In this document: piece by piece, positions 53,203 to 61,855 of the stretch
Position numbering within the stretch: position 1 is the first letter of the stretch
Layout of the letters: every line of letters begins with the position of its first letter
Source of the DNA: Escherichia coli
GTDB taxonomy: Bacteria; Pseudomonadota; Gammaproteobacteria; Enterobacterales; Enterobacteriaceae
Assembly (NCBI RefSeq): GCF_002854065.1
Contig: NZ_CP024147.1
Length of the DNA stretch: 64,000 nt
Direction: 5' to 3' (one strand)
Position numbers and translations under genes: made by a program
Notes under the pieces: generated by a model
What the model saw: only the letters and a program-made list of their open reading frames with translations
What the model was told of the DNA's origin: nothing
The model's database searches: none

Positions 53203-54396
53203 ATGAGAGCCTGCATTAACAATCAACAGATTCGCCACCATAACAAATGCGTGATTCTGGAACTGCTGTACCGGCAAAAGCGCGCCAATAAATCAACGCT
53301 GGCCCGGCTGGCGCAAATTTCGATTCCGGCAGTCAGTAATATTTTGCAGGAACTGGAAAGCGAAAAACGGGTGGTGAATATCGACGATGAAAGCCAGACG
53401 CGCGGGCATAGTAGCGGTACATGGCTGATTGCGCCGGAAGGTGACTGGACGCTGTGTCTGAACGTGACGCCCACCAGTATTGAGTGTCAGGTTGCTAATG
53501 CTTGTTTAAGTCCGAAAGGTGAATTTGAGTATTTACAGATTGATGCACCGACGCCGCAGGCGCTGCTGTCCGAAATCGAAAAATGCTGGCATCGCCACCG
53601 TGAATTGTGGCCGGACCGCACCATCAATCTGGCGCTGGCAATCCACGGTCAGGTTGATCCTGTGACCGGAGTGTCGCAAACCATGCCGCAAGCGCCCTGG
53701 ACAACGCCGGTTGAGGTGAAGTATCTGCTGGAAGAGAAGCTCGGCATTCGGGTGATGGTCGATAATGACTGCGTGATGCTGGCGCTGGCGGAAAAATGGC
53801 AAAATAATTCGCAGGAACGGGATTTCTGCGTGATCAACGTTGATTACGGCATTGGCTCGTCGTTCGTGATTAACGAGCAAATTTATCGCGGCAGTTTGTA
53901 TGGTAGCGGACAGATTGGTCACACCATCGTTAATCCGGATGGCGTCGTCTGCGACTGTGGACGTTACGGCTGCCTGGAAACCGTCGCCTCGTTAAGTGCA
54001 TTAAAAAAACAGGCGCGGGTATGGCTAAAATCACAACCGGTTAATACTCAGCTTGATCCTGAAAAACTGACAACCGCGCAGTTAATCGCTGCCTGGCAGA
54101 GTGGAGAACCGTGGATCACCAGCTGGGTTGACCGCAGTGCCAATGCCATTGGTTTGAGTCTGTATAACTTCCTCAACATCCTCAATATTAATCAGATTTG
54201 GGTGTACGGTCGCAGTTGTGCCTTTGGTGAGAACTGGCTTAATACTATTATTCGCCAGACAGGATTTAACCCGTTCGACCGCGACGAAGGACCGAGCGTG
54301 AAAGCGACGCAAATTGGCTTCGGGCAATTAAGCCGCGCACAACAGGTGCTGGGAATTGGCTATTTGTATGTTGAGGCGCAGTTACGACAGATTTGA
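53203..54396 (+). CDS. yphH: ROK-family (NagC/Mlc-like) transcriptional regulator YphH
   Basis: ORF track frame 53197-54396 opens on GTG; first ATG at 53203 (397 aa); N-terminal HTH; ROK zinc motif CDCGRYGCLE. Confidence 0.88.
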   Translation: MRACINNQQIRHHNKCVILELLYRQKRANKSTLARLAQISIPAVSNILQELESEKRVVNIDDESQTRGHSSGTWLIAPEGDWTLCLNVTPTSIECQVANACLSPKGEFEYLQIDAPTPQALLSEIEKCWHRHRELWPDRTINLALAIHGQVDPVTGVSQTMPQAPWTTPVEVKYLLEEKLGIRVMVDNDCVMLALAEKWQNNSQERDFCVINVDYGIGSSFVINEQIYRGSLYGSGQIGHTIVNPDGVVCDCGRYGCLETVASLSALKKQARVWLKSQPVNTQLDPEKLTTAQLIAAWQSGEPWITSWVDRSANAIGLSLYNFLNILNINQIWVYGRSCAFGENWLNTIIRQTGFNPFDRDEGPSVKATQIGFGQLSRAQQVLGIGYLYVEAQLRQI

Positions 54397-59008: not shown

Positions 59009-59711
59009 CAGGAGTGACCTCATGGGTGGATGGCGCGGGCTTTTCACCCTCGTGCGGCGTATCCGGCGAGAAATTTCCAGCCGGTTTGCGGGTCGAGAGC
59101 TGGCGTTCAATATCAGTCAGGTTTTCCAGCTTGCGGGTGGTGAGTTCCAGTTGCTGCTGTAGAACGTGATGTTGCTGGCGCAATATATCCAGCTCGCTGT
59201 CGCTGGACTGCTGGAGTTTACTGTAGCGTTGGCGCTCTTCCGCCAGTTGCAGTTGCAGCGCCTGACCGTCGCGCCAGAGTTGATACAGTGGGCGAACCTG
59301 TGCCGGGATCTCGGTACTTAACGCTTCAATACGCGCGACCAGCTGGCGGCGCTCATATGGCGTAATTTTGGCGTCGGCGAGCAAAATCCCTTGTTTAAAG
59401 GTATTTTGCCAGCTGCCGTCGTCATATTGGCGAGCTTGCTGACGCGACTGCGCAGGCATTAAACGATCAGCACAATCCATCGCCCGCAGCCAGTAAAGCG
59501 GATTGGTTTCGGTTGATTTACCTTGCAGCGCCCAGATGTCGCTACATTCAGTAGAAAGATAGTCAGCCAGTTGATAAACCGGAATTTTTTCTTCTGCTGG
59601 CGTATCAATGGCTGGCTTATTGTGATTCTGCACGCAACCTAGCAATGCCAGACATGGCAGCCCTGCCAGCCACAGCCGTCGGGGCAATAATCGTTGAAAA
59701 ATGTGTCGCAT
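58998..59711 (-). CDS. qseG: Outer-membrane lipoprotein QseG
   Basis: ORF track frame 58998-59717; start MRHIFQRLLPRR at ATG 59709-59711 (237 aa); lipobox LALLGC; 3' end overlaps the glrR start by 11 bp. Confidence 0.88.
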   Translation of the reverse strand: MRHIFQRLLPRRLWLAGLPCLALLGCVQNHNKPAIDTPAEEKIPVYQLADYLSTECSDIWALQGKSTETNPLYWLRAMDCADRLMPAQSRQQARQYDDGSWQNTFKQGILLADAKITPYERRQLVARIEALSTEIPAQVRPLYQLWRDGQALQLQLAEERQRYSKLQQSSDSELDILRQQHHVLQQQLELTTRKLENLTDIERQLSTRKPAGNFSPDTPHEGEKPAPSTHEVTPDEP

Positions 59712-59875
59712 ATTCACCAGACTTAAAGCCTATCCCAGTGGGCGTAATTGTTGCAGACAGTTTGGACATGGACAGCGCGGAGAAACCGGAGCGTACATGT
59801 CGTACGTGAGGATTTCGAGCACTGCCCGGGGCCGAACTGACAAATAAAATAGCCTGATGGGATAGGCTGTTAGCA

Positions 59876-61303
59876 TTATTTCGTGTTTTTCGACGACGGT
59901 AATTCAATGCGGAAACAAACGTCTTGCCCGCTCTCGTCGACCAGATACAGTTCCCCTTGCATACGGCGAATACAATCCCTGGCAATGCTTAATCCCAGAC
60001 CGCTGCCCTTCACCGCCCCTTTTCGCTGGTGGCTTCCCTGAAAAAAGGGTTCGAAGATCATGGCGCGTTCCTCTTGCGGAATGGGCGTGCCTGTATTGAT
60101 GACATCAATATAAACCCGCGCACCATGTAAACTGCTGCGAAGGCAAATGTTACCGGATTCAGCCCCGTAGTGCACCGCATTGGAGTAAAGATTATCCAGT
60201 ACGCTCATCAGCAGCATTGGCTCCGCCAGGCAAGCTGTTGCTTTGAGATCGACGTCGGTATGCATCATTTTAGCCCGTGCGGGCAGGCTATGAGCAGAAA
60301 CTACTGTCTCCACCAGCGGTGCTAACTCAACATTATCTAGTTCCACCGCACTGTCCGCCTGTTTACGGTTGTAATCAAGCAGTTGTTCGATCAGTTTTTG
60401 CAAATTGCGGCTGCTGCTATCAAGAATGCTCACCACCTCTTTTTGCTCTGGCGTAAGCGGCCCGACAACCTGATCAGCCAGTAATTCAGTGCCCTCGCGC
60501 ATACTCGCCAGTGGCGTTTTTAATTCATGAGATAAATGTCTTAAAAATTGATGGCGTTGGGATTCCAGCCATGACAGGCGCTCACTTAACCAAAGAATAC
60601 GTTGCCCAACCGAGCGTAACTCGCTCGGTCCACTGAACGAAACGCTATTGCCCAGAGAACGCCCTTCCCCCAACCGATTGATCATCCGTTCAATATTTTT
60701 CACCGGCCCGATAATCATCCGCGTGAAAAGCAGTACCATTACCAGACTCACCAGAAATAGCACCAGCGATTGCCAACCAAAATATTGCCCACGTTCGGCG
60801 ATTTCACGCTGAAGTTGCTGCCCACGAGAGAACACTACTGTGCGCGTGGCCTGTACCATTTCGGTATTGGCACTGGCAAAGGCTTCCAGACGCGCGGCAG
60901 CAGCAGCATCGGGACCACTGTTGTTGCACTGAAGTTGGGCCAGATTGTTCAAGTCCTGACGCAATGCCTGGTAAAGTTTATTGTCTGGCAGTACGCCTGC
61001 GTGGGCATCGAGCATTTCGCTGTAACGCTTGCGCTGGCTTTGATAAACCTTCGCAAGCGTAGGGTCATCCAGCACGCAATACTGACGGTAGCTACGCTCC
61101 ATCTCCAGCGCCGCGTTGGTCATTGCTTCGCTGCGCCGGGCATCGATAAGCGTGGTGCGGTTGACCAGCGCCGCCTGGTCGCTAAGCGCATTCAGGCTTT
61201 GCCAGGCTTGCCATGCCAGCACCAACAGGGGCAGCAGAATCAGCAAAAATGCCAGCATTACCAGTTGTCGTAATGAGCGGGGAAAAACGGGCCAGCGTTT
61301 CAA
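59876..61303 (-). CDS. glrK: Sensor histidine kinase GlrK (QseE)
   Basis: ORF track frame 59876-61366 would run through the glmY terminator; conserved N-terminus (M)KRWPVFPRSLRQLV begins at a TTG codon (61301-61303), giving 475 aa; HAMP region and HELKTP phospho-acceptor box. Confidence 0.85.
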   Translation of the reverse strand: MKRWPVFPRSLRQLVMLAFLLILLPLLVLAWQAWQSLNALSDQAALVNRTTLIDARRSEAMTNAALEMERSYRQYCVLDDPTLAKVYQSQRKRYSEMLDAHAGVLPDNKLYQALRQDLNNLAQLQCNNSGPDAAAAARLEAFASANTEMVQATRTVVFSRGQQLQREIAERGQYFGWQSLVLFLVSLVMVLLFTRMIIGPVKNIERMINRLGEGRSLGNSVSFSGPSELRSVGQRILWLSERLSWLESQRHQFLRHLSHELKTPLASMREGTELLADQVVGPLTPEQKEVVSILDSSSRNLQKLIEQLLDYNRKQADSAVELDNVELAPLVETVVSAHSLPARAKMMHTDVDLKATACLAEPMLLMSVLDNLYSNAVHYGAESGNICLRSSLHGARVYIDVINTGTPIPQEERAMIFEPFFQGSHQRKGAVKGSGLGLSIARDCIRRMQGELYLVDESGQDVCFRIELPSSKNTK

Positions 61304-61360: not shown

Positions 61361-61545
61361 CAACAAAGCCGGGAATTACCCGGCTTTGTTATGGAATAAG
61401 GCGGTGCCTAACTCGACGTTTCGCCCGATGGTTGATATAGCTACGCTGATATCAGAAGTTGGACGGCAGGCACCTTGTTGTGCGTCATTCGAATTTTATG
61501 TAGCACGTCCCGAAGGGGCTGACATAAGTCGGTGAATGAGCCACT
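61361..61545 (-). ncRNA. glmY: Small RNA GlmY
   Basis: Minus-strand sequence AGTGGCTCATTCACCGACTTATGTCAGCCCCTTCGGGACGTGC...AAAGCCGGGTAATTCCCGGCTTTGTTG matches my recollection of GlmY (about 184 nt); terminator hairpin at 61365-61387 plus U-rich tail; sits 58 bp upstream of glrK. Confidence 0.85.
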
Positions 61546-61775: not shown

Positions 61776-61803
61776 CAAAAAAGCTCCCTGAGTTGGGAGC
61801 TTA
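61776..61803 (-). terminator. Rho-independent terminator of purL
   Basis: aagctccc-tgagtt-gggagctt preceded on the plus strand by aaaaa (T run on the minus strand). Confidence 0.75.
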
Positions 61804-61822
61804 TAATAGCGGTTGGTATTTA

Positions 61823-61855
61823 ATGCCGGATGCGGCGTGAATGCCTCATCCGGGC
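61823..61855. repeat. REP palindromic unit
   Basis: atgccggatgcggcgtgaatgcctcatccgggc just downstream of the purL stop. Confidence 0.75.

Follow-up and report, generated by a model that had tools for sequence, protein, structure and literature searches.

Blattner and co-workers in 1997 and Bachellier and co-workers in 1996 and 1999 are said to have described RSA as a palindromic intergenic repeat of 152 bp, with six copies in Escherichia coli K-12. Tourist-like MITEs and the IS5 family exhibit target duplications of 3 bp (TWA/TNA) or 4 bp (YTAR). With regard to effects on RNA, the ERICs found in Yersinia operons give the upstream and downstream transcripts different stabilities, and Correia hairpins are substrates of RNase III (review PMC2229807). 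The REP hairpin inside GlnZ of K-12 is heavily cleaved by RNase III (bioRxiv 10.1101/2022.04.01.486790).

The genes qseE-qseG-qseF(-glnB) have been described as one operon, with a weak sigma-70 promoter located 25 bp upstream of qseE (PMC3903284; PMC6075780). This operon is very weakly expressed, its downstream genes rely on the promoter upstream of qseE, and QseG is limiting for QseE/QseF signalling (PMC6075780). A discoordinate level of the two proteins, with more QseG than QseE, has been seen in Salmonella too (PMC12691602). Earlier work on the operon considered that the qseE-qseG intergenic region might contain an internal promoter, and the repeat located there went unrecognised. In the window, by which we mean the whole 64,000-nucleotide stretch of E. 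coli DNA that was analysed, the insertion between glrK (qseE) and qseG is an old, fixed copy of an already known kind of enterobacterial palindromic repeat. E. coli differs from Salmonella, Citrobacter and E. albertii exactly at this junction, and qseEGF constructs, deletions and cross-species comparisons should account for the element.

Inverted repeat and fold at the glrK-qseG junction

The glrK stop codon and the qseG start codon both lie on the minus strand, according to the ORF list and the K-12 annotation, and the features between them are collected in Table 1. The terminal cores AGCCTATCCCA and TGGGATAGGCT are exact inverted copies of 11 nt, and 2 of 1000 dinucleotide-preserving shuffles of 59712-59878 contained a perfect inverted repeat of this length or longer. 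When extended to 59722-59737 and 59858-59873, the arms comprise 16 nt each with 88% complementarity and 120 nt between them (repeat finder). The triplets at 59723-59725 and 59870-59872 are direct, not inverted, repeats. The element is short and non-coding and has terminal inverted repeats, which are perfect over 11 nt here and over 16 nt in the family consensus (CTAAGAGCCTATCCCA...TGGGATAGGCTCTTAG). The open reading frames that overlap it, 59617-59985 (122 aa), 59701-59847 and 59730-59876 (48 aa each), are mechanical calls that are not conserved.

The minus, transcribed strand of 59705-59885 folds with -59.6 kcal/mol, compared with -43.8 ± 4.0 kcal/mol for shuffles (z = -3.97), and none of the 200 shuffles folded as well. 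The long hairpin spans 152 of the 164 spacer bases between glrK and qseG.

A sequence-only reading of this stretch had assigned the flanking genes to glrK and qseG, correctly so, and had pointed to two inverted copies about 120 bp apart. The first, agcctatccc, lies exactly at 59727-59736 as noted. The second, gggataggct, is present, but its true position is 59859-59868, which is 4 nt to the right of the 'about 59855-59864' given for it. The same reading had placed the whole spacer within a potential long stem; nearly the whole spacer indeed lies in one imperfect stem, which is backed by covariation in the family, and the RNA folding proposed as a check returned a single long hairpin with the z value given above.

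Table 1 Features of the glrK-qseG junction (positions in the window)
Feature	Position	Strand	Basis or remark
Full repeat unit, 152 bp, including the flanking C-TWA-G motifs	59722..59873		Covariance model R1, end to end
Inserted DNA proper, 144 bp between the duplicated triplets	59726..59869		Filled vs empty sites, E. albertii L016, L015
Left target-site duplication, TTA on + / TAA on coding strand	59723..59725		Once in empty sites
Right target-site duplication, TTA on +	59870..59872		3 nt from glrK stop codon
Left terminal inverted repeat core AGCCTATCCCA	59727..59737		Outer helix of consensus hairpin
Right terminal inverted repeat core TGGGATAGGCT	59858..59868		Outer helix of consensus hairpin
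Apical hairpin GCGTAC-ATGTC-GTACGT	59791..59807		Helix 7, alignment columns 71-76 with 82-87
Most conserved family block ACAAATAAAATAGC	59840..59853		Invariant or nearly so in 13/13 aligned copies
Small terminal hairpin AGCCT-ATCCCATC-AGGCT, then ATTTTATTTG	59841..59868	-	Weakly terminator-like, just past glrK stop
glrK (qseE) stop codon TAA	59876..59878	-	ORF list, K-12 annotation
qseG Shine-Dalgarno GGTGA (59717-59713) and ATG (59711-59709)	59709..59717	-	Left unchanged by the insertion
Element ends GAGCCTATCCCA			
Terminal 20-25 nt of the element: GAGCCTATCCCAGTAGGCGTAATTG			

Dispersed copies, insertion history and target site

In a blastn search with the 167-nt spacer, all but one of 5426 complete E. 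coli genomes (5425) gave matches, at a median of five places per genome (range 1-8), and both K-12 MG1655 (NZ_CP032667.1) and C600 exhibit six. In a plasmid collection, 140 plasmid or chromid records matched with 72-89% identity, adjoining unrelated genes, and these records belong to Pantoea, Klebsiella, Citrobacter, Salmonella, Enterobacter, Serratia and Yersinia. Five distinct loci are occupied in E. coli, namely glrK-qseG, which is the only one located among the six places of K-12, rlmL-ycbX, glnA-glnL and pyrH-frr in strains other than K-12, and hemE-nfi in strain E166. Further copies are found between malF and malG in Pantoea, at the end of an RND permease gene on Klebsiella, Citrobacter and Enterobacter plasmids, and upstream of yjdI in K. 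aerogenes. In the glnA-glnL (GlnZ) region, the O111/STEC-type insertion is a family member, and the insertion in GlnZ of K-12 is a REP. One species (L063) has a family copy immediately upstream of glrK, in the position that the operon promoter has in E. coli.

All trimmed copies are 146-153 bp long, and the window copy, of 152 bp, aligns over its full length with 12 others of 146-153 bp. A covariance model, R1, was built from these 13 copies. In the 64-kb window it has a single match, at 59722-59873 (178.8 bits, E = 2.5e-44), and it recovers the copy of L093, which was outside its training set, at 170 bits. The ACAAATAAAATAGC block is kept even in copies whose terminal arms differ. In the RNAalifold consensus, the whole unit forms a single long, imperfect hairpin with 44 pairs. 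Standard pairs occupy 93.5% of the cells, compared with 22-40% when the partners are slid by 1-3 columns, and 15 pairs are double-changed, compared with 5.7 ± 1.7 in shuffles (0 of 500 reach 15) and 1-5 with slid partners. The outer helix covaries most, with double (compensatory) changes in 9 of its 15 pairs, and the inner helices covary also. The covariation of the outer helix could partly result from both ends matching one transposase, and not from a function of the hairpin. Both orientations of the copies fold about equally (-54 to -75 kcal/mol), independently of the direction of transcription, and strand-specific RNA selection was rejected on this basis. The orientation relative to the flanking genes is mixed, with three copies one way and five the other.

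The history of the junction was followed in 80 orthologous loci anchored on GlrK, with one genome per species. Only E. coli (L013) and two lineages of Escherichia sp. (L014, L058) have a glrK-qseG spacer of 164-165 nt. Some 75 further enterobacterial species, among them E. albertii, Salmonella arizonae and diarizonae, Citrobacter, Enterobacter, Kosakonia and Buttiauxella, have spacers that do not exceed about 50 nt and commonly measure 17-22 nt, or a 4-nt overlap of the two genes, the exception being a separate insertion in Citrobacter amalonaticus. Conservation of the repeat across strains and related genomes, which the sequence-only reading had proposed as a check, is thus seen on one side only. 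The repeat is kept in 5425 of 5426 complete E. coli genomes, because the insertion is ancestral to the species, but E. albertii, Salmonella, Citrobacter, Enterobacter and about 70 other species are without it at this junction, because the element is an insertion. Sequenced relatives of the Salmonella in which QseG reportedly exceeds QseE are without the insertion.

The empty site reads ...AAATAATGC-TAA-GTCTGGTGAATATG (E. albertii L016, L015; core GC-TAA-GTCTGG), and the filled site reads ...AAATAATG(C/T)-TAA-GAGCCTATCCC...GGGAAAGGCTC-TAA-GTCTGGTGAATATG (core G(C/T)-TAA-GAGCC...GGCTC-TAA-GTCTGG). The difference between the spacers of 164 and 17 nt, which is 147, equals 144 inserted plus 3 duplicated nucleotides. 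GTCTGGTGAATATG, which comprises the 14 nt before the qseG ATG, is identical in filled and empty alleles. The ancestral junction was thus tight, with TAA-TGC-TAA-GTCTGGTGAATATG and 17 nt from stop to start. The element integrated at the second TAA and duplicated it, so that the glrK stop codon and the 14-nt ribosome-binding region of qseG were both kept.

Target duplication, in each case of TAA/TTA, is documented by three independent pairs of filled and empty sites, namely glrK-qseG, the glrK stop of C. amalonaticus and hemE-nfi. C. amalonaticus S646 (L024) exhibits a separate related copy, in the opposite orientation and with extra internal sequence. This copy occupies the glrK stop codon itself, 13 nt upstream of the insertion site in E. 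coli, has (C)TAA flanks and alters the last residues of GlrK. The hemE-nfi site is polymorphic within E. coli: K-12 is empty, with a 9-nt spacer (...CTCC-TTA-GCGG), and E166 is filled (...CTCC-TTA-GAGCCTGGTCC...GGACCAGGCTC-TTA-GCGG). This TTA corresponds to the stop codon of hemE on the coding strand, where the target reads CGC-TAA-GGAGTGATTATG. A TWA duplication flanks the copies in L003, L004, L005, L024 and L093. Outside the three filled/empty pairs, the triplets on the two sides of a copy are either directly repeated (TTA/TTA or TAA/TAA) or one base apart. As the target C-TWA-G is nearly palindromic, the length of the duplication is ambiguous between 3 and 5 bp. Read on the coding strand, a typical target consists of a TAA stop codon and, directly after it, the G of the Shine-Dalgarno sequence of the next gene.

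On the sequence evidence, the junction hairpin is a mobile-repeat insertion that occurred in an ancestor of E. coli, and not a structure that evolved at the locus. The terminal repeats and the target duplication suggest that it was mobilised by a transposase. The insertion polymorphism (hemE-nfi in E166 and K-12) and the dispersed copies, at 1-8 places per genome, fit a MITE. The sequence-only reading had implied that the junction possesses a hairpin of its own that tunes the operon. This part is not supported, as what folds here is a dispersed mobile repeat that inserted at the junction, its body forming the hairpin; the presence of a striking stem in a virulence operon is therefore not evidence of designed regulation.

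Transcription and possible functions of the hairpin

Since qseE-qseG-qseF(-glnB) is described as one operon, the element should be part of the qseEGF mRNA. It would thus be transcribed within the qseE-qseG-qseF-glnB message and probably form there a hairpin of about 44 bp, with -56 to -66 kcal/mol. Alleles that differ by up to 10% keep the hairpin within this range in transcript orientation. The insertion widens the gap between the cistrons about tenfold, from 17 to 164 nt, which probably ended any coupling by termination and reinitiation. By analogy with other palindromic repeats, the double-stranded module could serve as a barrier to 3' exonucleases or as a substrate of RNase III. In the Term-seq tables of Adams 2021, the only 3' end near glrK is that of GlmY, and none is given at K-12 2,689,4xx-7xx on either strand, the operon being very weakly expressed. 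Among the sites listed in the RNase III table of Gordon 2017, one is inside the glrK coding sequence and none is in the spacer. Because of the very weak expression of the operon, such missing 3' ends and cleavage sites mean little.

The hairpin may have been exapted as an intercistronic RNA module, which would set the expression of qseE relative to that of qseG-qseF by being processed by RNase III or RNase E, or by blocking 3' exonucleases so that the mRNA segments on its two sides decay with different half-lives. This possibility deserves consideration, but we regard it as unlikely. The copy is fixed, being present in 5425 of 5426 genomes, but any old insertion that is unable to excise is expected to be fixed. 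The hairpin is retained in alleles differing by up to 10%, and in the orthologous copies the paired columns vary about half as often as the unpaired ones (11/88 vs 16/67). However, compensatory double changes are absent among these orthologous copies, and their divergence is close to neutral, the rate between Escherichia lineages falling between those of third codon positions and of whole genes. In transcript orientation, 39 of the 44 pairs of the window copy are standard and five are A-C mismatches, whereas all 44 are standard on the plus strand. The transcript-stability effects of Yersinia ERICs and the cleavage of Correia and K-12 GlnZ REP hairpins by RNase III (PMC2229807; bioRxiv 10.1101/2022.04.01.486790) are precedents for such a module, but an excess of QseG over QseE is also reported in Salmonella (PMC12691602). 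Finally, filled and empty alleles exhibit no consistent difference in the predicted accessibility of the qseG ribosome-binding site. Its Shine-Dalgarno sequence has a mean unpaired probability of 0.27-0.57 where the site is filled and of 0.44-0.45 where it is naturally empty, and in-silico excision gives 0.44. Occlusion of the ribosome-binding site was rejected, as there is no consistent effect.

Three other activities can be imagined for the element. The AGCCT...AGGCT hairpin followed by AUUUUAUUUG, just past the glrK stop, could act as an intrinsic terminator or attenuator and lower the expression of qseG-qseF. A consensus scan flags this site (coding-strand 59868-59851 plus tail; five pairs, of which three are G-C). 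Nevertheless, the stem has only five pairs with an 8-nt loop and competes with the far more stable long hairpin, and three terminator-like sites are found in the region, two of them on the other strand, compared with 0.9 ± 1.0 in shuffles. Moreover, the Term-seq tables give no 3' end upstream of qseG or at K-12 2,689,4xx-7xx, and expression of the genes further downstream relies on the qseE promoter region (PMC6075780). We consider a terminator very unlikely.

Alternatively, a promoter within the element could drive qseG-qseF-glnB independently of qseE. The copy of L063, directly upstream of glrK, does occupy the position of the E. coli operon promoter, but the consensus scan detected no sigma-70-like promoter site on the coding strand in 59400-60100, and family copies are found in both orientations relative to the downstream genes. 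We consider an internal promoter highly improbable.

A cis-antisense sRNA could also be transcribed from the plus strand, starting from the promoter-like site at 59663-59691, comprising the hairpin and ending in the T-rich tail at 59874-59895. This would be in line with the better pairing of the window copy on the plus strand (44/44 standard consensus pairs vs 39/44 on the operon strand), with the upstream promoter-like site, which matches 9 of 12 consensus positions, and with the terminator-like stem and T-run that follow. However, one such promoter-like site is the level expected by chance (0.7 ± 0.9), and the Term-seq tables give no mapped 3' end on either strand. The wobble asymmetry of the window copy results from 4-5 substitutions and is not observed in K-12 or L013. 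An antisense sRNA is thus extremely unlikely.

Overall, the junction is probably best explained by an old, fixed insertion of a mobile repeat that persists as a tolerated passenger. The element is most likely not a purpose-built regulator, and its effect on the QseE:QseG ratio would be modest at most. The passenger reading is an argument from absence, and the retention across E. coli and the lower variation of the paired columns are compatible with some selection.

It is unlikely, in our opinion, that the insertion was co-opted in E. coli, with the hairpin of about 44 bp setting the QseE:QseG ratio by means of RNase III/E or an exonuclease block, and that, in a related manner, the family targets C-TAA-G junctions and is a recurrent source of intercistronic and 3'-UTR RNA structure. 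As QseG is limiting for QseE/QseF signalling, co-option would imply that the set-point of this virulence-linked three-component system in E. coli, EHEC included, differs from that in Salmonella and E. albertii, which keep a junction of 17-22 nt. Examples of recurrent structure would be the three hits in the glmY-glrK-qseG region, in three lineages, hemE-nfi, malF-malG and the O111-type GlnZ.

Whether as a passenger or not, the element may be tolerated in tight operon junctions because duplication of TAA recreates the stop codon on the upstream side as well as the ribosome-binding context on the downstream side. C-TAA-G combines a stop codon with the G that opens the following Shine-Dalgarno sequence and, if it is targeted, the element could enter tight junctions harmlessly. 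The TAA duplication at such stop/Shine-Dalgarno junctions would explain how elements of this kind settle inside operons without harm.

Comparison with known repeat families

We take the glrK-qseG element to be a copy of the RSA family, as the length, palindromic shape, dispersal and K-12 copy number reported for RSA fit. Membership in this family is very likely, judged by a comparison that covers these four features. RSA (also 'BEE95'; Bachellier and Hofnung 1996) shares with the element the 152-bp unit, the palindrome, the intergenic dispersal, the occurrence in several genera and the six K-12 copies, and no feature was found that differs from the length and copy number reported for RSA or from its other traits. 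The title of the BEE95/RSA reference mentions 'dispersed enterobacterial intergenic elements'.

Current resources do not name the element at this site. NC_000913.3 is without a repeat annotation at the glrK-qseG site, and in Rfam 15 no family reaches its gathering threshold, the sole hit in the element being sX9 at 59741-59807 (31.4 bits vs a threshold of 44, E = 0.007). The same search found GlmY nearby, as expected. A systematic survey of E. coli stem-loop repeat families did not recover the element, and recent MITE reviews do not list the family.

An assignment to ERIC/IRU, REP/BIME or RU-3 instead of RSA is almost certainly wrong. On first impression, the central GGAGCGTACA...GTACGTGAGG resembles the ERIC core, but the best ungapped match to the ERIC PCR primers (ERIC1R/ERIC2 sites) is 14/22. 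The true ERIC of the narS insertion (L012) and the true REP of K-12 GlnZ (L011) neither align with the element nor score with R1 at E <= 1. The unit of 150-153 bp also differs from the 127 bp of ERIC, the approximately 35 bp of REP and the 103 bp of RU-3. ERIC identity was thus rejected on the primer mismatch, the missing alignment with the narS ERIC and the missing R1 cross-match. REP/BIME was rejected since 59712-59878 contains no G+C-rich unit of 35-40 bp of the GCCGGATGCGGCG...CGCATCCGGC type and the K-12 GlnZ REP is unrelated. RU-3 (Delihas 2007) was rejected as a name, because its published sequence is a pair of REP units. In E. coli narS, a true ERIC forms the '170-nt insertion'.

Beyond sequence identity, several of these systems resemble the element in architecture. 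ERIC/IRU is likewise an imperfect palindrome that forms one long stem-loop, is intergenic or intercistronic and co-transcribed, and resembles MITEs in its terminal repeats and in duplicating its target. It differs in belonging to another sequence family, in its length (127 vs 152 bp) and in its target, which is TA for ERIC and TWA/CTWAG for the element, and the copy number of the element in E. coli is much lower than that of ERIC. REP/BIME is similar in that a stable, repeat-derived hairpin is embedded in a transcript, as in K-12 GlnZ, but REPs belong to another family, are about 35 bp long and G+C-rich, and occur in hundreds per genome. The Correia/NEMIS elements of Neisseria are also non-autonomous units of 100-155 bp that have terminal inverted repeats, duplicate their target and are often co-transcribed with neighbouring genes as a hairpin. 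In contrast, their sequence and host are unrelated, they number hundreds per genome, they duplicate TA, and they exhibit Correia promoters and an IHF site, none of which were found in the element. Judged by its architecture, the element is MITE-like, i.e. non-autonomous and palindromic, with about 144 bp plus a duplicated TWA triplet. With Tourist-like MITEs and the IS5 family it shares the short length, the terminal inverted repeats and the duplication of TWA (TAA/TTA) within C-TWA-G, a likeness that concerns the target site.

Insertions around glmY, glrK and qseG

In Citrobacter amalonaticus S646, the glrK-qseG junction carries a second, independent insertion of the repeat family found in the E. 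coli spacer (Table). This copy lies in reverse orientation relative to the E. coli one, contains about 60 nt of additional internal sequence and has (C)TAA on its flanks. It sits precisely on the stop codon of glrK, which places it 13 nt upstream of the insertion in E. coli, and it replaces the C-terminal residues of GlrK (...SKTNPVHQA*). The site is empty in L027 and L029, two further C. amalonaticus genomes. A third hit of the family in this neighbourhood, a full-length copy in 'Citrobacter sp. 18056', follows the glmY terminator and ends about 25 nt upstream of the start codon of glrK. The position that it occupies corresponds, in E. coli, to the promoter and transcription start of qseEGF.

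Table. Coordinates of repeat-family copies and other features
Feature	Locus	Position	Strand	Remarks
GlmY sRNA gene	window	61398-61545	-	Rfam RF00128, 147 bits
naRNA4, weak Rfam match	window	61798-61855	-	23 bits, E = 0.68; glmY-purL intergenic region
sX9 (Xanthomonas sRNA), sub-threshold Rfam match	window	59741-59807	-	31.4 bits, gathering score 44; E = 0.007
Marginal match to R1, the repeat-family covariance model	window	53291-53414	+	16.3 bits, E = 0.23
Copy, C. amalonaticus S646	L024	4418-4629		orthologous to window ~59870-59885
Full-length copy, 'Citrobacter sp. 18056'	L063	2822-2974		159 bits
Copy, E. coli E166 hemE-nfi junction	L093	701-852
Empty hemE-nfi junction, K-12	L094	1282-1290		9-nt spacer
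Copy at RND efflux permease gene	L003	1496-1648		~60 related plasmids, Klebsiella/Citrobacter/Enterobacter
Left TAA of duplication, Pantoea malF	L010	1483-1485
Copy, STEC639 glnA-glnL (O111/STEC-type)	L006	1482-1631
'170-nt insertion' enlarging E. coli NarS	L012	2338-2521		K-12 narS
Insertion in K-12 GlnZ	L011	3429-3622		K-12 glnZ

Polymorphism and overlap with gene ends

The hemE-nfi copy is polymorphic in E. coli: K-12 lacks it, while strains that have 7 copies of the repeat carry it, which suggests that the family was mobile after the species diversified. The insertion point is again a stop codon, that of hemE, and the TTA duplication is perfect. In Pantoea, the left TAA of the duplication is the stop codon of malF. 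On L003 and the related plasmids, the RND efflux permease gene ends inside the repeat; the annotated coding sequence continues into the element for about 16 nt and terminates at a TAG within the terminal repeat.

The window copy and neighbouring matches

E. coli O157:H7 genomes carry a spacer 100% identical to that of the window. Read as RNA from the + strand, this allele forms standard pairs at all 44 positions of the consensus hairpin; in the operon transcript, 39 of the 44 are standard, as five G-U wobbles become A-C mismatches. The K-12 allele and that of L013, another E. coli ortholog, do not share this asymmetry, and the substitutions are too few for interpretation. The sX9 match covers the central part of the element and could reflect either chance or descent of sX9 from a related repeat.

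Elsewhere in the window, the GlmY gene occupies its expected place immediately upstream of glrK. The naRNA4 match is probably an ordinary REP element. The naRNA4 family consists of REP-derived nucleoid-associated RNAs. The marginal R1 match is probably noise, although it may be what is left of a degraded family member.

Insertions in GlnZ and NarS

The O111-type glnA 3'UTR/GlnZ has been defined by a '98-nt insertion' between AGGUUCAAA direct repeats (PMC9731577), and this insertion is a member of the repeat family of the glrK-qseG spacer. According to the description in PMC9731577, the short O157-type 3'UTR would retain ~37 nt from the right end of the element (ATGGCAAATAAAATAGCCTGATGGGACTGGTTTTTAG); it therefore looks like a deletion between these 9-nt repeats and not the ancestral state. 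A query with the glnA 3'UTR junction matched 3830 genomes, O111-type and O157-type not being separated. A typical ERIC element (CCCAGGAGCTTACTAAAGTAAGTGACTGGGGTGAA) makes up the insertion enlarging NarS, and a typical REP the one in K-12 GlnZ. Thus, 3'UTR-derived sRNAs or operon junctions of E. coli have been remodelled by three different repeat families.
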